A stretch of DNA of 64,000 bases, taken from Candidatus Latescibacterota bacterium (GTDB lineage: Bacteria; Latescibacterota; UBA2968). The notes beneath the pieces are model-generated. The model ran no database searches and was not told where the DNA came from. It worked only from the letters and a program-made list of their open reading frames with translations. Below are positions 45,229 to 56,605 of this stretch, piece by piece; position 1 is the stretch's first letter; every line of letters begins with the position of its first letter. Both the position numbers and the translations under genes were made by a program. The stretch is taken from NCBI GenBank assembly GCA_965204745.1, contig OZ242010.1, positions 2,144,001 through 2,208,000 of the forward strand, in the 5' to 3' direction.

Positions 45229-45461
45229 TTTACCCATTCGCTATTTCGATTTTGAGCGCGGAGGAAAAGCCGCGCCCGGTCTGTGCGACAGCTTTTGCAA
45301 AGGAGGCTCCAGATGATCACCGCCATTTTCAGCCGCTGTTTGAACCTCATTTGGTGCTATGTTCCCACCGTGAAAAGTGGCGTTCATATCGCCCATTCTC
45401 GTCTTGATGTGTGGTTCTATTTCATTGCAAAACAATCTGTTAGGATGATCAGTACAGTGTA

Positions 45462-45485
45462 CCCCCCCCCCCCCCCCCCCCCCCC
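45462..45485 (+). repeat. poly-C tract (24 C)
   Basis: Direct count; 19 nt upstream of ATG 45505. Confidence 0.9.
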
Positions 45486-45504
45486 TCTCGGAGAGGGGGA
45501 CAAA

Positions 45505-48500
45505 ATGACGCCCCGCTACGCTCGCTTGTTGGCCCTGGTCGCGCTGGGCATGCTGGTGGCATCAGGGCCGGCTTTTGCCCAAACCGACTACGACTCGGAC
45601 AACGACGGCTACATTGATGTAGCCAACCTCGCACAGCTCAACGCCATTCGCTGGGATCTCAATGGCGATGGTGTTGTGTCGAGCACCGACTCTACAAACT
45701 ACTTCACCGCCTTCAGTAACCCCGCCTCGGGCATGGGGTGTCCGTCCTCCGGCTGTAATGGCTACGAACTGCTCAACAACTTGGACTTTGACGAGAACAA
45801 CGACAACTCAATCACCTCAGCAGACGCCACCTATTGGAACAACGGTGCCGGATGGCTACCCATAGGTGGTACCTACACGGGCAATTTCAAGGGCAACGGC
45901 TACACCATCGACAACCTGTTCATCAACCGTGGCTCCGCCAGCGCTATCGGACTGTTCTATCAATTTGGATCCAGCTCCCGCGTCGAAACCCTCGGCATCA
46001 TCAACGCCAATGTTACGTTAAAGAAATATGGCGGTATTCTGGTATACCAAAATTCCGGCACAATCGTCGCCTGCTACACCACCGGCACAGTGACGGGGGA
46101 AGAAAAAATTTCTGGATTAGTCGGCTGGGCTGGCACAGGAAGTATCTCAACTAGCTACTCCCATGCATCCGTTACAACCTCCACCAACGATAGCGATGTC
46201 GGCGGTTTGGTAGGCGAGATATGGGGCAATGCCATTATAAGAAATTCGTACTTCGCAGGTACCATCAACGGCACCAATTCCGCCGGCGGATTAGTCGGGG
46301 ACGAAGACGGAGGTAGCGCGTACGACAGCTACTGGGACTCCTCAAAAGCTTCAGGGACGATCCAACTGGGTAGCGGTCAGTCCACTACCACTCTCCAAGG
46401 TACCACCGGCTATACTGGCATCTACGCCAACTGGAACCTGGACTTGGATGGCAATACCAACACCGGCGATAGCCAAGGCAGAGACGATCCGTGGAACTTC
46501 GGCACCAGTAGCCAGTACCCGGTACTGAAGTACGTCGGTCCTTCCGCGGTAGTGATTGACCACGATGGCGATAACGATGGCCTGATTGACATCAAGACTT
46601 TGGCGCAACTCAACGCCATTCGCCACGACCTCAACGGCAATGGCGACGCTACCCACGCCGATTATGCCGCCGCCTTTCCCGGCCGAGTCACCACCAGTAG
46701 CGGCCGGATGGGTTGCCCGTCCGGGACCTGCACTGGCTACGAACTGCTCAACAACTTGGACTTTGACGAGAACAACGACGGCGCGATCACCCAAGCAGAC
46801 ACCACCTACTGGAATAGCGGTGCCGGCTGGGACCCTCTGGGGACTTACACCGGCACGTTCAAGGGCAACAACAAGACCATCTCCCACCTGTTCATCAACC
46901 GGGGGTCTCGGCATAATACAGGATTGTTCCAGGCGGTTGATGGCGATGTTTCGGGGTTGGGGTTGTTGAATGTGGATGTGACCGGCCGTGACCGCGTGGG
47001 TGGTCTGGCCGGTAATCAAGGTGGTGGGGGCACCATCTCGTCGTGTTATGTGACGGGTCGCGTTTCGGGGTCGAAGTGGGGTGTGGGTGGTTTGGTTGGT
47101 CGGTCTTTTCGCACTTCGGGCACCAACCGCATTGTGAGCAGCTATGCGAGAGTCTCTGTGCGCGTTCCTGCGTCTGTGACGAGTGGCGGGATGGCCGGCG
47201 GTTTGGTGGGTTGGCTGACCGATCAGACCGAGGTGGTGGCGTCTTACGCGATGGGCTCTGTGTTCGTGGGACACAGTAGCGGGGTGGGCGGTGGGTTGGT
47301 GGGTCAAATCGCGAGCGGCGGTGGCGTGACCGCGAGCTACTCGATAGGGCGGGTCACGGGTGCCGGCACGAAAGGCGGTTTGGTGGGTAGCATATCTGGC
47401 ACAGTGACCGATAGCTACTGGGACACGCAAGAAAGCGGCATTGCCGACGATGGCGATACTGTTGCGCCGGAGGGCAAGCTGATCTCCGACTTACAATCGG
47501 TCACGTCTGCGAGCGGCATCTATGCCAACTGGGACGATCTGACCATAGATGCTTCGGGGGCCAACGATGATGATCCCTGGACCTTTGGCACGACAAAGCA
47601 GTATCCGGTCTTGACGTTTGCCGACATGGACACCACGGTGCAATTCGCTATCCAACCTGTGCATTATGACACGGATAGCGACGGCCTCCTCGAGGTCTCG
47701 ACCTTGGCCCAACTGCATGCCATGCGCTGGGATCTCAATGGCGATGGGGTCGTCGCCGATAGTGATGCCATGACCTACAACGCCGCCTTTCCCAACGGGA
47801 ACTTGTCACGGAGCAAGGGGTGTCCTTCCACAGGTTGCATCGGCTACGAACTGCTCGCCAACCTGGACTTTGACACCTCCGGCGACGGAGAGATCACCTC
47901 AGCAGACGCCACCTACTGGAATGGCGGCGCCGGCTGGGCACCCATCGGCAGTAGCAACACCTCCCCATACACCGCCACGTTTGAGGGCAACGGCAAGACG
48001 ATCTCCCACCTGTACATCAACCGCTACGTCAACTTTTCGGGATTTTTCGCAAGCACGGATACCACTACCCACATTCGCTCTTTGGGGTTGGTCAACGCGG
48101 TGATCAATACGGGTCAGGGCACGGTGGGCGCGCTGGTGGGTCTGAACAAGGGTCGGATCGCGGCGAGTTACGTCACGGGGTCGGTCACGGCGAGCACCAA
48201 TGTCGGCGGGTTGGCGGGCGCCACTCAGAGGGGGTCGTACATCGTGGCGAGTTACGCCACGGCGTCTGTGGTGTGCAATCAGTCGGGGCCGTGGTCCACT
48301 GGCGGCGGGTTGGTAGGTGCCAATGGTCCGGGTGCGACGATCGCGTCGAGCTACTCAACAGGCTCAGTGACGGGGGCCTGCCTGCACAAGCATGGGCTGG
48401 CGGAAAACTCAGGTACAGTGACCGATAGCTACTGGGACACGCAAACAAGCGACATTGCCGATGATAGCGATACTGTTGCGCCGGAGGGCAAGTTGACCTC

Positions 48501-51500
48501 CGACTTACAATCGGTCACGTCTGCGAGCGGCATCTATGCCAACTGGGACGATCTGACCATAGATGCTTCGGGGGCCAACGATGATGATCCCTGGACCTTT
48601 GGCACGACGAATCAGTATCCGGCCTTGAAGTTTGCCGGCCTGGACACCACGGCGCAGTTCGCTACCCAACCCGTGCATTACGACACGGATAGCGATGGCC
48701 TCCTCGAGGTCTCGACCTTGGCCCAACTGCATGCCATGCGCTGGGATCTCAATGGCGATGGGGTCGTAGCCGATAGTGATGCCATGACCTACAACGCCGC
48801 CTTTCCCAACGGGAACTTGTCAGCGAGCAAGGGTTGCCCTTCCACAGGTTGCATCGGCTACGAACTGCTCAACAACTTGGACTTTGACGAGAACAACGAC
48901 GGCGCGATCACCCAAGCAGACGCCACCTACTGGAATAGCGGCGCCGGCTGGGACCCTGTGGGGCCTTACGGCGGCACATTCAAAGGCAACAACAAGACGA
49001 TCTCCCACCTGTTCATCAACCGGGGGTCTCGGCATAATACAGGATTGTTCCATGCGGTTGATGGCGATGTTTCGGGATTGGGGTTGTTGAATGTGAATGT
49101 GACCGGTGCTGACCGCGTGGGTGGTCTGGCCGGTAATCAAGGTGGTGGGGGCACCATCTCGTCGTGTTATGTGACGGGTCGCGTTTCGGGGTCGCGGTGG
49201 GGTGTGGGTGGTTTGGTTGGTCGGTCTTATCGCACTTCGGGCAGCAACCGCATTGTGAGCAGCTACGCGCTCGTCTCTGTGCGGGTTCCTGCACATGTGA
49301 CGAGTGACGGGCTGGCTGGCGGTTTGGTGGGTTGGCTGACCGATCAGACCGAGGTGGTGGCGTCTTACGCGCTGGGCTCTGTGTTCGCGGGACACAGCAG
49401 CGCGGTGGGCGGCGGGTTGGTGGGTCAAATCGCGAGCAACGCTGACGTGACAGCTAGCTACGCGATAGGACGGGTCACGGGTGCAGGCACGAAAGGCGGG
49501 TTGGTGGGCAGTTCGGCTGGTACAGTGACCGATAGCCACTGGGACACCTCCACCAGCGGGCAGACCACCAGTGCCGGCGGTAGCGGCGTTGTTGGCAAGA
49601 CGACTAGCGATCTCCTAAGCCCTACTACCTACGGTGCCACCGCCAACGACACCTACTACAACTGGAACGCCAACCTCGACGGACAACCCGGCAACGATGA
49701 TCCGTGGACCTTTGGCGCGATGGATCAGTATCCGGCCTTGAAGTATGCCGGCATGGACACCACCGCGCAATTTCAGCTTCAACCCGCGAGAGTGACGTTG
49801 ACCCTGATGCCCTCGTCGATCTCGGAAAGCGGCGGGATGGGCACTGTGACCGCGACGCTGGCACACCCGTTGAGCGCGGCAACGACGATCACGGTGCGCC
49901 CTGTGGCGGGTGCTTACACGGTGGGGTCGGATACGACGATCACCATCGCGGCCGGGAGCACTGCGAACGCGACGGATACGGTGGTCATCACAGCGGTGAA
50001 CAACACCCAAGACGAGCCTAATCGCGATGTGACCGTGTCCGTTGTGGCGGGCAACGCCCAAGGCGCGGGCAGTGTAACTGGTGCGACTTTGACGCTGGAG
50101 GACGACGACCCTGCACCGACAGCGACGTTGGCGGCGTCACCGGCGTCGATTTCGGAGAACGGCGCGGTTTCGACGATCACGGCGTCGCTATCGCGTCCAT
50201 CGAGCGCGGCGACGACGATCACGGTGCGCCCGGTGGCGGGTGCTTACACGGTGGGGGCGGATACGACGATCACCATCGCGGCCGGGGACACGATTAACGC
50301 GTCGGACACGGTGGTCATCACAGCGGTGAACAATACCCAAGACGCGCCTAATCGCGACGTGACCGTGCTAGGTGTGATGAGCAACACCCAAGGCGCGGGC
50401 AGTGTGACCGGTGCGGCTTTGACGCTGACGGACGACGACGTTGCGCCGGACGTGACGATGGTTTTGTCGCCTGCGTCGATTTCAGAGGACGGCGCGATTT
50501 CGACGGTGACCGCGACCCTGTCTCACACGTCGAGCGCGGCGACGACGATCACGGTTTCAGCGTCGGCTGTGTCGCCTGCGGTTCCGGGCGACTACATGCT
50601 GAGTACGCCGGCCACGCTGACCGTCGCGGCGGGCGCAACGACGAGCACGGGCACCGTGACGATCACGACGGTGGACAACAGCATATCTTCGGGGAACAAG
50701 ACGGTGACCGTGTCGAGCACGGTGGGCAACAGCATAGGCACGGGATCGGTCACTGATGCGACGCTGACGATTATCGATGACGAAGTGGCGCAGGTGACAT
50801 TGGTTTTGACTCCGGCGTCAATTACGGAGAATGCCCAGATTTCCACGATCACGGCGACGCTAGATCGCGTTGCAACCGTGGCGACGACGGTCACGGTTTC
50901 AGCGACCCCGGTGGCCCCTGCGGTTGCGGGCGATTTTACGCTATCGACCGCGACCACGCTGACCTTCGCGGCGAATGTGACGACGAGCACAGGCGCCGTG
51001 ACGATCACCTCGGTGAACGACACGACCGATGCGCCGGACAAGCGCGTGACCGTGTCTGCAACGGTGGCAGGTGGCAATGGGGCGTCGCTATCGTCTGCCG
51101 TGACCCTGACGATCACCGACGATGAGGCCGCGCCGGATGTGGCACTGACGCTGTCGCCCGCGTCGATTGCAGAGACCGGCGGTGTTTCGACGATCACGGC
51201 GACGCTGTCGCATCGGTCGAGCGCGGCGACGACGATCACAGTGCGCCCGGTGGCGGGTGCCTACACGGTGGGGATGGATTCGACGATCACCATCGCGGCT
51301 GGGAGCACGGCGAACGCGACGGACACAGTAGAGATCACGGCCGTGGACAACGCGACCGATGCGCCGAACAATTCCTTGACCGTGTCTGTTGCGGTGAGCA
51401 ATGACCAAGGCGCAGGCAACGTGACCGGCACGGCTTTGACGATCACAGACGATGACGCCGCGCCGGACGTGACACTAATGCTGTCGCCCGCGTCCATCTC

Positions 51501-53211
51501 GGAGGATGGCGGCGTGAGCACGGTGACGGCGACGCTGACACACCCATCGAGTGAGGCGACGACGATCACGGTGCGCCCGGTGGCGAATGCCTACACGGTG
51601 GGTTCGGATTCGACGATTACCATCGCGGCTGGGAGCACGGCGAACGCGACGGACACGGTGGCACTCACCGCCGTGGACAACGACATAGACGCATCAGACA
51701 ACGCGGTGATGGTGCAGACCGCCGCTGTGGAGAACGACCACGGCGCGGGCAACGTGCAGGCTACGTCGCTGACGATCACCGATGACGACGAGGCGGCGAT
51801 TGAGGTGTCGGCGATGACCACGACGACGGTCAGGCTCCACACGACAGAGTCGGGCAGGGCCGAGACCTTCACGGTCACGCTCGCCTCCGAGCCGACGGGG
51901 AACGTGGCCCTCTCGGTGGTCAGTTCAGACACGACGGAAGGCACTGTATCGCCCTCGGTGCTGACCTTCTCATCGACAACATGGAGCACGGCGCAAACCG
52001 TGACCGTGACCGGGCAGGACGATACTCCCGCCGCCGTCGATGGCAACCAGAACTATACGGTCACCCTTTCGGTGAACCAGACGGATACGCAGGACACCAA
52101 CTACGACGCGCTCACCGCGATCATCGTGTACATGGTCAACCGCGATAACGATTTCGGCTTGGACATAAGCGCGGTGACCGGGCAGGCCACAGAGGCCGGT
52201 GCCTCGGCGACCTTCACGGTGGCCCTGCTGACGCAACCCTCGGCGGCGGTAACGATTTCGGTGACGAGCCAAGACCCGAGCGAAGGGCGGGTTGAGCCTG
52301 CGATGCTGACCTTCGCGCCGACGAGCTATAACACGGCACAAACCGTGACCGTGACCGGGCAGGACGACATCATCGACGACGGGAACGTCACCTGGACGGT
52401 GCGACTCGCCCTATCAAGCGGCGATGCCAACTACAACACCCTTTCGGACGAGGATGTTCCGGTGACGACGACCGACGATGAAGATGCGCCGACCGTGACG
52501 TTGGTGCTCACACCCTCGTCCATCTCGGAAAACGGCGAGGTTTCCACGGTGAGCGCGACCCTATCGCATCCATCGAGCGGGATCACGACGATCACGGTCT
52601 CTGCTACGCCTGTGTCCCCTGCGACTGCGAGCGACTTCACGCTATCGAGTGCAGACACGCTGATCATCGCGGCGACGACCACAACGAGCACGGGCACCGT
52701 GACGATCACCGCAGAGGACAACAACGACCAGGCAGACGAGAAGATGGTCAGGGTGTCTGCAACCGCAAACAACGCCCAAGGCATCACCGATCCTTCGCCC
52801 GTGACCCTGACCCTGACCGATGACGAAACACCGAGTGCCAACTTGGATGTGGATGGCGATGGCCGGGTGAGATTGTTCTCGGATATAATCCTGGTCATTC
52901 GATACGTCCTCTTCTTCCGGGAAGAGGCCCTCCTCAGAGGGAACGTCATCGAGCCAACTGCCACGCGCACGACCGCTCAAGAAATTGAACCCTACCTCGA
53001 CACGTTGGTCAATCAGAACATTCTCGATGTGGATGGCGATGGCGATGTGAGGCTGTTCTCGGATATAATCCTGATCATTCGATATGTCCTCTTCTTCCGG
53101 AACGAGGCCCTCGTCAGAGGGAACGTCATCGAGCCAACTGCCACGCGCACGACCTCTCAAGCCATTGAACCCTACATCCGAAGCCTCTATCCCGCCTCCC
53201 ACTTCCAATGA
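45505..53211 (+). CDS. large secreted repeat protein: 4 GLUG-like modules, multiple Thr-rich Ig/Calx-beta-like domains, dockerin-like C-terminal duplication
   Basis: Signal peptide MTPRYARLLALVALGMLVASGPAFA; 4x DxDGLxxVxxLAQLxAxRxDLNG..C...C.GYEL; GGLVG repeats; LTITDDD repeats; 2x LDVDGDG.VRLFSDIIL.IRY. Confidence 0.85.
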   Translation: MTPRYARLLALVALGMLVASGPAFAQTDYDSDNDGYIDVANLAQLNAIRWDLNGDGVVSSTDSTNYFTAFSNPASGMGCPSSGCNGYELLNNLDFDENNDNSITSADATYWNNGAGWLPIGGTYTGNFKGNGYTIDNLFINRGSASAIGLFYQFGSSSRVETLGIINANVTLKKYGGILVYQNSGTIVACYTTGTVTGEEKISGLVGWAGTGSISTSYSHASVTTSTNDSDVGGLVGEIWGNAIIRNSYFAGTINGTNSAGGLVGDEDGGSAYDSYWDSSKASGTIQLGSGQSTTTLQGTTGYTGIYANWNLDLDGNTNTGDSQGRDDPWNFGTSSQYPVLKYVGPSAVVIDHDGDNDGLIDIKTLAQLNAIRHDLNGNGDATHADYAAAFPGRVTTSSGRMGCPSGTCTGYELLNNLDFDENNDGAITQADTTYWNSGAGWDPLGTYTGTFKGNNKTISHLFINRGSRHNTGLFQAVDGDVSGLGLLNVDVTGRDRVGGLAGNQGGGGTISSCYVTGRVSGSKWGVGGLVGRSFRTSGTNRIVSSYARVSVRVPASVTSGGMAGGLVGWLTDQTEVVASYAMGSVFVGHSSGVGGGLVGQIASGGGVTASYSIGRVTGAGTKGGLVGSISGTVTDSYWDTQESGIADDGDTVAPEGKLISDLQSVTSASGIYANWDDLTIDASGANDDDPWTFGTTKQYPVLTFADMDTTVQFAIQPVHYDTDSDGLLEVSTLAQLHAMRWDLNGDGVVADSDAMTYNAAFPNGNLSRSKGCPSTGCIGYELLANLDFDTSGDGEITSADATYWNGGAGWAPIGSSNTSPYTATFEGNGKTISHLYINRYVNFSGFFASTDTTTHIRSLGLVNAVINTGQGTVGALVGLNKGRIAASYVTGSVTASTNVGGLAGATQRGSYIVASYATASVVCNQSGPWSTGGGLVGANGPGATIASSYSTGSVTGACLHKHGLAENSGTVTDSYWDTQTSDIADDSDTVAPEGKLTSDLQSVTSASGIYANWDDLTIDASGANDDDPWTFGTTNQYPALKFAGLDTTAQFATQPVHYDTDSDGLLEVSTLAQLHAMRWDLNGDGVVADSDAMTYNAAFPNGNLSASKGCPSTGCIGYELLNNLDFDENNDGAITQADATYWNSGAGWDPVGPYGGTFKGNNKTISHLFINRGSRHNTGLFHAVDGDVSGLGLLNVNVTGADRVGGLAGNQGGGGTISSCYVTGRVSGSRWGVGGLVGRSYRTSGSNRIVSSYALVSVRVPAHVTSDGLAGGLVGWLTDQTEVVASYALGSVFAGHSSAVGGGLVGQIASNADVTASYAIGRVTGAGTKGGLVGSSAGTVTDSHWDTSTSGQTTSAGGSGVVGKTTSDLLSPTTYGATANDTYYNWNANLDGQPGNDDPWTFGAMDQYPALKYAGMDTTAQFQLQPARVTLTLMPSSISESGGMGTVTATLAHPLSAATTITVRPVAGAYTVGSDTTITIAAGSTANATDTVVITAVNNTQDEPNRDVTVSVVAGNAQGAGSVTGATLTLEDDDPAPTATLAASPASISENGAVSTITASLSRPSSAATTITVRPVAGAYTVGADTTITIAAGDTINASDTVVITAVNNTQDAPNRDVTVLGVMSNTQGAGSVTGAALTLTDDDVAPDVTMVLSPASISEDGAISTVTATLSHTSSAATTITVSASAVSPAVPGDYMLSTPATLTVAAGATTSTGTVTITTVDNSISSGNKTVTVSSTVGNSIGTGSVTDATLTIIDDEVAQVTLVLTPASITENAQISTITATLDRVATVATTVTVSATPVAPAVAGDFTLSTATTLTFAANVTTSTGAVTITSVNDTTDAPDKRVTVSATVAGGNGASLSSAVTLTITDDEAAPDVALTLSPASIAETGGVSTITATLSHRSSAATTITVRPVAGAYTVGMDSTITIAAGSTANATDTVEITAVDNATDAPNNSLTVSVAVSNDQGAGNVTGTALTITDDDAAPDVTLMLSPASISEDGGVSTVTATLTHPSSEATTITVRPVANAYTVGSDSTITIAAGSTANATDTVALTAVDNDIDASDNAVMVQTAAVENDHGAGNVQATSLTITDDDEAAIEVSAMTTTTVRLHTTESGRAETFTVTLASEPTGNVALSVVSSDTTEGTVSPSVLTFSSTTWSTAQTVTVTGQDDTPAAVDGNQNYTVTLSVNQTDTQDTNYDALTAIIVYMVNRDNDFGLDISAVTGQATEAGASATFTVALLTQPSAAVTISVTSQDPSEGRVEPAMLTFAPTSYNTAQTVTVTGQDDIIDDGNVTWTVRLALSSGDANYNTLSDEDVPVTTTDDEDAPTVTLVLTPSSISENGEVSTVSATLSHPSSGITTITVSATPVSPATASDFTLSSADTLIIAATTTTSTGTVTITAEDNNDQADEKMVRVSATANNAQGITDPSPVTLTLTDDETPSANLDVDGDGRVRLFSDIILVIRYVLFFREEALLRGNVIEPTATRTTAQEIEPYLDTLVNQNILDVDGDGDVRLFSDIILIIRYVLFFRNEALVRGNVIEPTATRTTSQAIEPYIRSLYPASHFQ

Positions 53212-53463: not shown

Positions 53464-53819
53464 GGGACCTACCCCCCTAACCCCCCTTCCTGCGAGGAAG
53501 GGGGGAACGGTGAGCGGTTTTGCGAGGGGAATGGCGATAGGTTTTTTGGGGTTCATTGATCCATTCGCTCAAAGCCATCAAAACAGGCCTGGATGCAAAC
53601 CTTTCAGAAAGCCATGCGCTCCCCCTTTCCTTGTAGGAAAGGGGGCCGGGGGGATAGGTCGCATTTTCATGGCATGATCCATTCGCGCAAAGCCATCAAA
53701 ACAGCCAGGGATACAAACCTTCAAAAAGCCATGTGCTCCCCCTTTCCTTGTAGGCACAGGCGTAGCCTACAATGAGCGAAGCGAATAACGGGGGCCGGGG
53801 GGATAGGTCTCTATGGCGG
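53464..53819 (-). repeat. long repeat, inverted partner of 44876-45114, with internal duplication
   Basis: Sequence alignment by eye. Confidence 0.88.
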
Positions 53820-53909
53820 GGGATGCGAAGGACACAGCGGAGTGGGAACGATGAAGCGGTGGTAGGGTGGTGGGTGGCTCTCACCTCTTGTATGTTGTCA
53901 GAAAGGGTT

Positions 53910-54115
53910 AATTTAGGTGTTGCGCCCTCGCATCGAGACACGCCATCTTGATGCCCTGCTCGGGGAAGGCCGGCGCCTCTTGAAGGCTATGACCTTGTAA
54001 GTAAGATAGGCCCCCCGACCGCCGAGTTGATACCGAAGAGTATCTAAGTCCATTGAGGCTGCATATACAAGACCGGTAGACTGGGCAAACAGTCGGGACG
54101 CGAACCCGAGCGCAC
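53910..54115 (+). ncRNA. IS110 bridge RNA (ends approximate)
   Basis: Two internal loops whose guides match the target flanks (53974-53981, 53999-54006) and the element ends (54037-54045, 54065-54072). Confidence 0.85.
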
Positions 54116-54154
54116 ACCAGACCCCTTCCCCACCCCTCATCACAGGAGGCCCCG

Positions 54155-55162
54155 ATGTCGAACACTCAACCCGCTTTTGCCGGCATTGATGTCAGTGCCC
54201 ACACGTTGTCCGTTGCCCTGTCCAGACCCGGACAAGGGGTCATGCAAGCCACCTTTGACAACGCGCCTCGGGCGCACAAGCACCTGTTGAAGTGGCTCAC
54301 CAAGGGCGGGCGCATGGTCTCGGTCTGTCTCGAAGCGACCGGGCGTTATAGCTTGGGGGTGGCCTTGGCCTTGCATCAGCATCGCTGCACGCAGGTCATG
54401 GTCGTCAATCCCAAAGCGATGAGCAAGTACGCTCAAGCCTGCATGCAACGGGCAAAGACAGATGCGAAGGATGCGTTGTTGATCCTCGATGATGCCGAGC
54501 GCATGCCCTTTGTGCCTTGGCAAGTGCCGAGCGAGCACGTCCTGCAACTGCAAACGCTGACCAGACGCATTGACCAACTCAAACAGGAGGTCAGCCGCGA
54601 ACAGAACCGGCACCACGCGCAGGACTACCCCGTCAAGCGTGCCCGCCTCATCACACGCGATATTCAGGTGAATATTCGACACCTCAAACGCCGCATTGCC
54701 TACTTGGAAGACCAAGCCCTCAAACTCGTTTTGCAGGACGAGACCCAAAAGCGTGCCTACCAGCACCTCTGCTCGGTGCCCGGTATCGCCCAAACGAGTG
54801 CCTTGCGGCTCTTGGCCGAGCTGGCCTCCTTGCCAGACGGGATGGAACCGCCCCAATGGGTCGCTCATGCAGGCCTGGATCCCAAACCCAAACAATCCGG
54901 GATGGCCAACCCGGAAAGACGCATCTCGAAAACCGGAAATAAATATCTCCGCCATGCCCTCTACATGCCTGCTTGGGTGGCCTGCAGGCACGAAGTCCAT
55001 GTCAAAGCCTTTTATGACAAACTCATCGCCAGGGGCAAGAAACCTTTGCAGGCTATCGTTGCGGTGATGCGAAAGTTGCTCCATTCGATCTGGGGCATGT
55101 TGCGGCATGACCAAGATTTTGAGGGCGAGAAATTCTATCGAATCACCCCGAAAACCCCTTGA
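54155..55162 (+). CDS. IS110 family recombinase/transposase
   Basis: DEDD motif GIDVS, LEATG, KTDAKDA; SVPGIA, AGLDP...QSG, ISKTGN..LR..LY. Confidence 0.95.
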   Translation: MSNTQPAFAGIDVSAHTLSVALSRPGQGVMQATFDNAPRAHKHLLKWLTKGGRMVSVCLEATGRYSLGVALALHQHRCTQVMVVNPKAMSKYAQACMQRAKTDAKDALLILDDAERMPFVPWQVPSEHVLQLQTLTRRIDQLKQEVSREQNRHHAQDYPVKRARLITRDIQVNIRHLKRRIAYLEDQALKLVLQDETQKRAYQHLCSVPGIAQTSALRLLAELASLPDGMEPPQWVAHAGLDPKPKQSGMANPERRISKTGNKYLRHALYMPAWVACRHEVHVKAFYDKLIARGKKPLQAIVAVMRKLLHSIWGMLRHDQDFEGEKFYRITPKTP

Positions 55163-55438
55163 CCTTTTAAGAGAGTATCTTACTTCTTGCCTCTTACTCG
55201 GGGATAGGGCTTGCGGTGGGGCGGTGATGGGATGGGCACGCATGGGCGGCAGGGCATGCGAAGGACATAGCGGTGGGGAACGATGAAGCGGTGGTGGGGA
55301 TGCGGGGTAATCCGCGTAATCCCCTAATCCGTTTAATCCGCGATTCTCCGCCTTTGACCTTGACACGCAACATAGCGATTCCGATATTGGACGCAACAGA
55401 GGTTTGTCGAACAATTTACAACGCACTTGGAGCGCGCT

Positions 55439-56605
55439 ATGGCTGAACGAAAGAAGATCGCGGCGATTGTGACTTCGTATTTTCCCCGGTCGCATGCGGA
55501 TGTGATTGTGACGAAGTTTTTGAAGGGGTTCCCCACGGATGACGGGTTGTTGTTGCCGGAGGTGGATGTCGCGTCGATGTATTTGGATCAAGTGCATTTT
55601 AGAGACGATATCGGGTGCGCGATAGCAGAGGAGTTTGGAGTGCCGATGTATGGAAGTATTACGCGAGCTCTGACGTTGGGAGGAAGCGAGTTGGCGGTGG
55701 ATGGCGTGTTGCTGATCGGCGAACACGGGGATTATGCGTGGAATGAAAAAGAACAACACATGTATCCGCGCAAGTATTTTTTTGAGCAAATCTGCGGGGT
55801 GTTTGCCTCGTCCGGGCGGGCGGTGCCGGTGTTTAATGACAAGCATCTCTCGTACAACTGGCAAGACGCCAAGTGGATGTACGACCGCGCGTGCGAACTC
55901 GAGGTGCCGTTTATGGCCGGGTCGTCCGTGCCGCTGGCATGGCGCAAGCCGTGGATCGACTATGCGTTGGATGCGGAGATCGAAAAGGCGATGTCCGTGG
56001 CGTATAGCGGGCTGGATTCCTACGGGTTTCACGCATTGGAGCTCTTACAGTGTATGGTGGAGCGGCGCGCTGGCGGCGAGACCGGGATTGTGGCTGTGAG
56101 GTGTTTGGAGGGCGACGATGTTTGGGCGTCCGATGCGTGGGATCGCGATCTCTACGCGGCGGCGGTGGCACCCATCGAGGCGAAAGAAGAGGGCGATGTG
56201 CGCGACCACTGCGAAAATCCAGCGCTCTTTTTGTTGGAATATGCGGATGGATTGCAGGCGGCGACGTTGATGTTGAATGGGTACACAAAAGGGTGGGGCT
56301 TCGCAGCGCGGCGAAACGGACAGGTGGAGGGCATGCGCGTTTTGTTGCCGGATAGCCCGCATCCGCATTTCAGTTATTTGAGTTTGAATGTCCAGCAGAT
56401 GTTTTTGACGGGCGAGCCGCAGTACCCGGTCGAGCGCACGCTGTTGGTGTCTGGCGCGCTGGAGGCGTTGTTGGATTCGCGGTATCAAGGGCACGAGCGC
56501 GTCAAGACGCCGCATTTGCAGGTGGCCTATCAATCGTATCGAAAGATGCCGATTCGCCCGGTGAATCCGCATCCGATGGGCGCGAGTTTGGCGCCGTTTG
56601 AATGA
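55439..56605 (+). CDS. conserved hypothetical protein, oxidoreductase-like
   Basis: Long ORF with host-like codon style; VDGVLLIGEHGDY, VFNDKHLS, YGFHALE. Confidence 0.7.
   Translation: MAERKKIAAIVTSYFPRSHADVIVTKFLKGFPTDDGLLLPEVDVASMYLDQVHFRDDIGCAIAEEFGVPMYGSITRALTLGGSELAVDGVLLIGEHGDYAWNEKEQHMYPRKYFFEQICGVFASSGRAVPVFNDKHLSYNWQDAKWMYDRACELEVPFMAGSSVPLAWRKPWIDYALDAEIEKAMSVAYSGLDSYGFHALELLQCMVERRAGGETGIVAVRCLEGDDVWASDAWDRDLYAAAVAPIEAKEEGDVRDHCENPALFLLEYADGLQAATLMLNGYTKGWGFAARRNGQVEGMRVLLPDSPHPHFSYLSLNVQQMFLTGEPQYPVERTLLVSGALEALLDSRYQGHERVKTPHLQVAYQSYRKMPIRPVNPHPMGASLAPFE

Follow-up and report, generated by a model that had tools for sequence, protein, structure and literature searches.

A probable IS110-family insertion sequence of the IS621 bridge-RNA type at CT-rich heptamer repeats of a Candidatus Latescibacterota genome

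The window analysed in this work is a stretch of 64,000 nucleotides from a Candidatus Latescibacterota bacterium (contig OZ242010.1, positions 2,144,001 to 2,208,000 of the forward strand), and its subject is a mobile element located at positions 53889-55180 of that stretch. It is highly probable that this element is an intact insertion sequence of the IS110 family belonging to the IS621 bridge-RNA type; expression of the RNA, formation of a circle, catalysis and the use of guides in trans would be expected by analogy with IS621. The assignment to the bridge-RNA type had been made in an earlier note, and it was borne out by the protein domains, by the relatedness to IS621 and ISCro4, by a fold supported by covariation and by the co-variation of guides and targets both within and between genomes. 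The known mechanism is not changed by these observations, of which the element is a clear natural example. What is particular to it are the tandem heptamer targets, the existence of several guide sets on a single donor code, a perfect site that is near saturation and the possibility of guidance in trans. The genome offers in this way a natural experiment on bridge-RNA programming, with four to five target-guide sets, one donor code and 52 insertions, and the known IS110 targets are extended from repetitive extragenic palindromic (REP)-type units to tandem heptamer repeats. In addition, the family provides compact recombinases of 335 amino acids (aa), with divergent natural guides, for comparison with IS621.

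The element and its protein-coding part consist of the following features:

53889-55180, + strand: insertion sequence, 1292 bp, with 52 full-length copies in the genome
54155-55162, + strand: recombinase gene, 335 aa, whose D12, E60, D103, D106 and S248-G249 align with the catalytic residues of IS621
55172-55180, + strand: right end, formed by the left donor half AGAGTAT plus the CT core

The boundaries were set by the 52 genomic copies and by empty paralogous sites. A CT dinucleotide is found directly 5' of the element (53887-53888) and CT also constitutes its final two bases (55179-55180), so that a single CT in the reconstructed empty site corresponds to CT at both junctions of the filled one. 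That this empty site is real was evident when the two 40-nt flanks were joined and compared by BLAST with the genome: 62 hits were obtained, 36 of which span the joint, all without the element, and 24 of these 36 element-free paralogues are 46-80 nt long. The letters common to both junctions are TCTT, at the window copy and in the contig joints considered below, and they leave the sequence unable to fix the crossover; the exact dinucleotide, CT, is inferred here from the relatives of the element.

The 335-aa frame is the only long open reading frame (ORF) of the element. Its residues 9-155 match PF01548, the N-terminal DEDD RuvC-like domain (E 1.4e-24, 87.1 bits, for a cut-off of 29), and residues 203-287 match PF02371, the C-terminal Tnp domain (E 3.1e-19, 69.6 bits, cut-off 21.3). 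Only two matches were obtained among solved structures, namely the recombinases of ISCro4 (9t56, E 2.2e-35, residues 7-326) and IS621 (8wt6, E 3e-32), each of them matched over almost its whole length. Alignment with the latter places D12, E60, D103 and D106 opposite D11, E60, D102 and D105 of IS621, and S248-G249, that is, the catalytic serine and the glycine that follows it, opposite S241-G242 (the list of IS621 catalytic residues was taken from Hiraizumi 2024, the index of the PDB chain running two ahead of the native numbering). Identity to IS621 amounts to about 32% over some 319 aligned residues, by our count of identical letters in the alignment.

Upstream of the gene lies a non-coding left end of 266 nt, for which the following structures were predicted:

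53930-53954, + strand: predicted 5' hairpin of the RNA, present in the single-sequence fold only
53963-54015, + strand: target-binding loop module, with outer stem 53963-53971/54009-54015 and inner hairpin 53983-53986/53993-53996
54021-54086, + strand: donor-binding loop module, with outer stem 54021-54035/54074-54086 and inner hairpin 54047-54050/54057-54060

The single-sequence fold comprised the two internal-loop modules and the 5' hairpin, and its energy was only modestly better than that of shuffled sequences (z = -1.68), so the fold needed comparative support. This was sought in an alignment of 15 left ends from 11 genomes, which yielded a consensus of four helices, two per module, with 28 pairs, 13 of them showing compensatory changes. 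Cells were paired in 93.3% of cases, compared with 85.2% in shuffles, and none of 500 shuffles equalled the observed values of pairing, number of doubly changed pairs or covariation score; as a control, sliding the partner columns by 1-3 positions made pairing fall to 31-57%. Helices 1 and 2, in the target module, had 95% and 100% of their cells paired, respectively, while in the donor module helix 3 presented a compensatory change in 9 of its 13 pairs and helix 4 had all cells paired. The two outer stems that had been proposed from the letters alone, GGG/GGCC in the target module (53963-53971 with 54009-54015) and TACCG (54031-54035) with CGGTA (54074-54078) in the donor module, were recovered in both the single-sequence and the consensus folds. 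Since the aligned sequences are related and were chosen by us, these figures support, rather than prove, the two-module fold.

According to the rule described for IS621, left guides read as the top strand (they pair with the bottom one), right guides pair with the top strand, and the core is part of all four guide pairings (Durrant 2024). When this rule is applied, the loops and the sites of the window copy are read as follows:

53880-53888, + strand: left target half, made of the 7 nt CTCACCT plus the copy of the CT core at 53887-53888
55181-55185, + strand: right target half TACTT, with 5 of 5 positions pairing with the right target guide
53974-53981, + strand: left target guide CGCCTCTT, which covers 5 nt of left target and the CT core and extends by 1 nt
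53999-54005, + strand: right target guide AAGTA plus core-binding AG, the complement of CT-TACTT
54006-54007, + strand: AU at the target loop's handshake-guide position, the complement of AT at donor positions 6-7
54037-54045, + strand: left donor guide AGAGTATCT, the same sequence as the right end (55172-55180)
54065-54073, + strand: right donor guide ATACA, core-binding AG and handshake AC, complementary to the core and the start of the left end

The motifs listed in the earlier note, that is, CGCCTCTT (53974-53981), AAGTAAGA (53999-54006), AGAGTATCT (54037-54045), ATACAAGA (54065-54072) and TTGACC (55159-55164), were located exactly at these positions, and ATACAAGA is, as had been stated, the reverse complement of the core and the left-end start. 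The right target guide read there as AAGTAAGA stands as placed, but its final A corresponds in the IS621 model to a handshake-guide position and not to target guide. The left target guide matches the core and pairs with 5 of the 7 nt of the left target, including one G-T wobble. The donor loop agrees with the ends of the element throughout the family: in 51 of the 52 copies the left donor guide equals the last nine bases (9/9 positions), and the right donor guide is complementary to the core and the first five bases (8/8 positions).

The handshake-guide positions, as defined for IS621 by Hiraizumi 2024, were examined in 14 representatives, which also served for the guide-flank and promoter tests and which we picked from the loci analysed, at one or two per genome. 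In 13 of these 14 homologues the target-loop handshake was found to pair with donor positions 6-7, in one case (G085) through co-variation. For the donor-loop handshake base, which is A in the window element, a pair with target position 7 (T in the window copy) was seen in 10 of the 14, a wobble in three more and no pair in one. In the present genome the donor and the target both carry T at position 7, and each handshake base can pair with its own DNA too.

A search of the genome with the element returned 75 BLAST segments, consisting of the 52 full-length copies and, for the rest, of fragments. Of these copies, 51 keep the 335-aa frame, which in the remaining one is shortened to 262 aa. A group of 30 copies shows no difference along the entire element, and a second group of 8 is likewise uniform; these mostly intact frames and identical copies indicate a very recent multiplication of the family. 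Ten variants of the left end were distinguished, with four target-guide sets. The major set, CCCCTCTT with AGGTAAGA, is carried by 45 copies, that of the window copy, CGCCTCTT with AAGTAAGA, by four, a variant with TGCCTCTT by two, and TCCCTCTC with AGGTGAGA by a single one. A genome-wide scan for target loops detected 56 loops and seven guide sets. A fifth target-guide set, absent from the full copies, was found on a transposase-less derivative of 190 bp (G000:C1:2972661-2972850), which consists of left-end bases 1-184 followed directly by the final six bases of the right end; its target loop is intact, and its donor loop is without the 3' stem strand.

The left target guide varies among subfamilies (CCCC.., TGCC.., TCCC..) in step with the flanks, the subfamily guides CGCC/TACTT, CCCC/TACCT and TCCC/CACCT being found at matching sites: CCCC guides stand at CCCC sites and the single TCCC/CACCT guide at exactly a TCCC/CACCT site. 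The CGCC guide was found three times at CGCC and once, in the window copy, at CACC, and the TGCC variant at TACC, natural sites that fit the suggestion that the wobble would accept both CACC and CGCC. When each guide was compared with its own 12-nt site (5 + CT + 5), 23 of the 52 sites were perfect and 19 had a single G-T or U-G wobble, thus giving 42 sites devoid of mismatches, a number that rises to 45 when the best of the five guide sets is allowed. Examination of the other genomic copies for sites unrelated to the guides did not refute the bridge-RNA reading; the guides track the flanks among the 52 copies.

Some additional arrangements were observed among these copies. At G000:C1:1121591-1124180 two full copies are found head to tail, 7 nt apart (one heptamer unit including the core). 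Short left-end stubs occur at G000:C1:950646-950704, 2089406-2089466 and 4730102-4730166, and also at the G007 loci L038, L051 and L054; several stubs break at an internal CT (...CCATCT), which is followed by heptamer-like sequence or by another left-end start. L038 shows a solitary TGTATCT, then about eight CGCCTCT units, and after them the true left end.

Relatives at 73-81% aa identity were found in two Latescibacterota assemblies, G007 (OZ251458) and G028 (OY282377), others at 52-61% in eight further genomes of the phylum, and one at 48% in a Gemmatimonadota contig. The G007 copies are also inserted in heptamer arrays, with guides of their own (left CTCGCCT-CT, right CCC...). Those of G028 stand outside heptamer arrays, at CC(T/C)CC-CT-TTTCT; their guides read accordingly, with a U-G wobble at the core, and the guide variants CCTCC and CCCCC are each found at the matching site. 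The distant relatives occupy unrelated sites (right halves AACGT, CACTT, CACGC, CAYRC and others), with a right guide that changes accordingly. Compared with G007, G028 and the distant relatives, the elements of this genome have the core-binding bases of the left target guide one base nearer the 5' stem (alignment columns 85-95). In total, 13 distinct guide sets from 10 genomes were compared, across which the right target guide varies with the right flank: the mean pairing with the own site was 10.0/12, versus 5.45/12 for cross pairings, and none of 100,000 permutations reached the observed match, which also held when either the left or the right half was taken by itself. In G085, the donor end and the donor guide co-vary. 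Not included were L032 and L035 (their right end is GTTTCT and the pattern did not locate the boundary), L067 (a truncated match), L068, L078 and the 30-34% identical L069-L072, L079 and L080; L038, L051 and L054 were left out of the counts (the pattern took the upstream TGTATC stub as the left end), L055 was not chosen as a representative, L056, whose left end is cut by the contig end, entered the fold alignment and not the guide-flank test, and L065, L076 and L077 were read by eye only.

These data bear on an alternative view, namely that guides and flanks resemble each other simply because the sequence is CT-rich and of low complexity, or because host heptamers were captured in the left end, and that the protein alone picks the site. 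The sites are of low complexity, a CT-rich 8-mer recurs often in the arrays, and only 5 + 2 left-half positions pair in this genome. In contrast, guides and flanks change together at discriminating positions within the genome, homologues at non-heptamer sites (right halves AACGT, CACGC, TTTCT) carry correspondingly different guides, the permutations never reached the observed match, and the donor loop matches the element's own ends and co-varies with them in G085. The alternative is considered scarcely credible.

A further view of guide use was obtained from the occupancy of the sites. For the major guide, the perfect site CCCCTCTTACCT was found filled 20 times and free 5 times (20/25), the one-wobble site (TGCCT) filled 16 times and free 65 times (16/81), and the two-mismatch site TACCTCTTACCT filled 4 times and free 83 times (4/87). 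This drop in occupancy, from 80% where the match is perfect to 20% where there is one G-U wobble and about 5% where there are two mismatches, represents a natural estimate of the tolerance of the guide.

The ends of the element contain, in addition, the two parts of a putative promoter:

55159-55164, + strand: -35-like TTGACC, located in the right end and sharing bases with the stop codon
53891-53896, + strand: -10-like TATGTT in the left end, which would be usable only once the right end is joined to the left end

Across the joined ends, TTGACC and TATGTT are separated by 18 nt, a spacing that had already been noted and that was found correct by counting. In all 14 homologues TTGA keeps a constant distance to the right end, and TA[T/C][C/G]TT occupies bases 3-8 of the left end, again in all 14; the spacer measures 17 nt in the homologues and 18 nt in this genome, and the intervening bases vary. 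No sigma-70-like site was found inside the integrated element. The conserved hexamers fit the split promoter described for IS621 (Durrant 2024), and a similar function may be proposed.

All these observations can be integrated in a model built by analogy with IS621. The element would leave its site as a circle, and the joining of its ends would bring TTGACC to 18 nt from TATGTT, allowing the transcription of a bridge RNA of about 190 nt (approximately 53900-54090) together with the 335-aa DEDD/serine recombinase. The donor loop would pair with both strands of the joined ends, AGAGTAT-CT-TGTAT, and the target loop with both strands of the chromosomal C(G/A)CCT-CT-TACTT. Recombinase dimers bound to both loops would then synapse and exchange strands at the CT core, resulting in an insertion with CT at both junctions. 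The sites would be provided by CT-rich heptamer repeats (unit CCTCTYR), and the family would have split into guide variants that share one donor code, each inserted at the heptamer variant that its guides spell.

A number of observations weigh against this model, or against the activity of the window copy in particular. Only 5 of the 7 left-target positions pair in the elements of this genome, the register of the guide relative to the stem is shifted by one base in comparison with the G007 and G028 relatives, and 10 of the 52 copies have 1-3 mismatches to their own guide. The donor-loop handshake A can also pair with position 7 of the donor's own DNA, and in IS621 this arrangement (G166A) reduced recombination strongly (Hiraizumi 2024). 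The Logan contigs from four public runs (contigs only) contained no joint of right end to left end. In contigs from two public runs, 53885 is directly followed by 55178, a jump of 1292 nt in which TCTT makes up four ambiguous letters, yet these element-less joints have 28-43 nt on the shorter side, lie in a repeat and may correspond to paralogues and not to the same locus. A search of 53600-55500 against Rfam 15 (E up to 1) gave no family match in the element and no bridge-RNA model, the single row returned being a chance-level snoRNA outside it; membership of the RNA therefore rests on our own alignment, and the Rfam miss says nothing against the two-module fold. Finally, the window subfamily is small, with 5 copies (6 by target guides, counting the hybrid G000:602782), and its sites are mostly free: the perfect site of the window guide was found filled twice and free 25 times (2/27), and the wobble site, the window's own kind, once and 12 times, respectively (1/13).

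The latter figures could be taken to mean that the window copy is an inactive relic with no more than the appearance of an active element, given that its subfamily is so reduced and so few of its sites are filled. Nevertheless, its ORF is intact and the catalytic residues are kept, its RNA modules are intact and the same as in two other copies, and another copy is 99.84% identical over the 1292 bp, identity within the five copies of the subfamily being 95-100%. A relic is hence regarded as very unlikely, and the interpretation as an intact insertion sequence is retained.

The ten misfit copies deserve separate consideration. Three of them match another guide set without mismatch: c602782 fits TCCC/CACCT, while c1927368 and c5150716 fit the set of the 190-bp derivative, whose right target guide (complement of CT-CCCGT) fits the flanks of these two full copies located elsewhere. 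For IS621, it was reported that a complex takes its two loops from separate RNA molecules and that isolated loops function in vitro (Hiraizumi 2024), which makes steering in trans plausible. These three insertions are best explained by the guides of another variant, which suggests, from the sequences of guides and sites, that target loops may be used in trans in nature. A competing explanation is that the misfit copies did fit their sites upon insertion and that gene conversion from the abundant subfamily subsequently replaced their left ends, with no steering in trans. The many near-identical copies constitute an ample template for conversion, and c602782 is visibly a hybrid, part of its left end belonging to one subfamily and the rest to another; on the other side are the mismatch-free pairings of the three misfit sites with guide sets present elsewhere in the genome, one of them on the 190-bp derivative, and the IS621 precedent just mentioned. 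Conversion is a quite possible explanation, held to be less likely than not. If steering in trans does take place, the guide variants could behave as a shared pool, in which target loops, even that of the 190-bp derivative, would steer the circles of other subfamilies; this is possible because all of them share one donor code.

As to the nature of the target, CT-rich heptamer arrays of at least three units (with units such as CCTCTTG, CCTCTCA, CCTCTCC and CCTCTTA) number 738 in the genome, about 29.9 kb in total, compared with 4 in a shuffled genome. Exact period-7 arrays amount to 371, versus 91 for the next commonest period among those from 4 to 12. A total of 402 of the 738 arrays lie wholly outside ORFs of at least 200 aa, the fraction of the genome inside such ORFs being 85%, and 44 of the 52 full copies touch an array of at least three units. 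The heptamer repeats being abundant and mostly outside ORFs of at least 200 aa, insertion would seldom hit a gene, in agreement with the idea, put forward in the earlier note, of an abundant intergenic repeat as a safe harbour.

The site of the window copy is less simple, as it belongs to a dispersed repeat with two parts flanking the element:

53815-53886, + strand: left part of the target-bearing dispersed repeat, parts of which recur at 55248-55306 and in about two dozen genomic places
55181-55231, + strand: right part of the same dispersed repeat, the shared right flank of the window subfamily

The heptamer array that had been read at this site does exist in the form of heptamer-like units, but there are only about four of them, embedded in the dispersed repeat of about 80 bp; the tandem-repeat program TRF does not call this four-unit stretch, and long arrays are the sites of the other subfamily. 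The right flank is common to all five copies of the window subfamily. An orthologous empty site was not found, the region upstream of the neighbouring 392-aa gene not being conserved in G028, G007 or G018. Within the dispersed repeat, directly 5' of the insertion point (53869-53885), there is a weak G-T-containing hairpin, GGTGGG...CTCACC.

The abundance of the arrays raises the question of whether the recombinase itself creates, lengthens or shuffles them, for instance by target-loop-guided exchange out of register or between arrays, since every array unit offers a CT core 7 nt from the next one. The four-unit CCTCTYR pattern is found 1295 times in this genome and 1312 times in G007, whereas the counts in the other 18 listed genomes of the genus range from 0 to 22 (6 in G028); this genome and G007 are the only ones searched with heptamer-directed guides, the element of G028 being aimed elsewhere, and left-end stubs (TGTATCT...) adjoin arrays. 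If true, array exchange would help to account for the excess of CCTCTYR arrays, roughly 60-fold or more, in precisely the two heptamer-guided genomes. However, of the 19 other genomes of the genus 16 have arrays, as do all 15 of a neighbouring genus, whereas the element was found (E up to 1e-20) in only 2 of the 19 and in none of the 15. A second heptamer family, CTGACNA, is just as expanded here (922 matches to the four-unit pattern, 0 in G007 and 0-45 elsewhere in the genus), even though it has no CT-core context and is matched by none of the guide sets extracted genome-wide. No other IS110-family gene is present in the genome, all 57 PF01548 hits belonging to this element family, and only 71 of the 738 arrays lie within 50 bp of a full copy. 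Moreover, G007 and G028 are the nearest kin as judged by one neighbouring protein (91% identity, versus 83-87%), and the coincidence may reflect a single historical event. The notion that the element recombines or spreads the arrays, advanced in the earlier note, is consequently not supported and is held to be unlikely. The arrays are read as a feature of the host to which the guides have adapted, with the reverse causation kept as a case of low probability; the use of guide variants as a shared pool is likelier than array exchange. Eleven CTGACNA arrays are followed by a conserved linker of about 22 nt, after which CT-rich heptamers occur in 7 of the 11.

Other repeats surround the element in the window. 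Its intergenic region contains two direct repeats about 117 nt apart (53557-53754; blocks of 47 and 40 nt, 89-90% identical) and, at 55307-55342 of the same long intergenic region, a 9-nt tandem repeat, GTAATCCGC, in about four copies. An ORF of 2642 aa with many internal repeats (45283-53211, + strand) ends some 680 nt upstream of the element. In G018 (L090, about 1100-1370 of the reversed locus), a long uninterrupted (CTGACCA)n array lies upstream of the orthologue of the 392-aa gene.

In comparison with known systems, the element shares with IS621 of E. coli the two protein domains, the aligned catalytic residues and the location of the RNA in the left end, upstream of the gene, as well as the two internal-loop modules, the strand rule of the guides, the CT core in all four pairings and the handshake positions (Durrant 2024, Hiraizumi 2024). 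The putative promoter split across the joined ends and the target in a dispersed intergenic repeat likewise have counterparts in IS621. In contrast, IS621 targets the REP element and the window family the junction between heptamer-repeat units; the window element is only about 32% identical and pairs with no more than 5 of 7 left-target positions, its donor and target share T at position 7, and several guide variants coexist in one genome. ISCro4 (PDB 9t56) provides the best match among solved structures, the protein alone having been compared. In Pseudomonas putida, all copies of the IS110 elements ISPpu10 and ISPpu9 were reported to lie in one conserved intergenic repeat (10.64898/2026.03.19.712850; PMC12288879), and for ISPpu10 a target-side stem-loop was described as a second specificity determinant (10.64898/2026.03.19.712850). 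Like these, the window copy stands in a dispersed repeat of about 80 bp with a weak hairpin directly 5' of the site (53869-53885); unlike them, with their REP-type targets, most copies in this genome are found in plain tandem arrays and not in a palindromic unit. No literature was found linking IS110 or bridge RNA with heptamer or simple-sequence repeats, although the supplementary target lists of Durrant 2024 may hold such cases. The close relatives in G007 and G028 have the same ends and the same RNA architecture, and their guides differ from those described here and fit their own sites.

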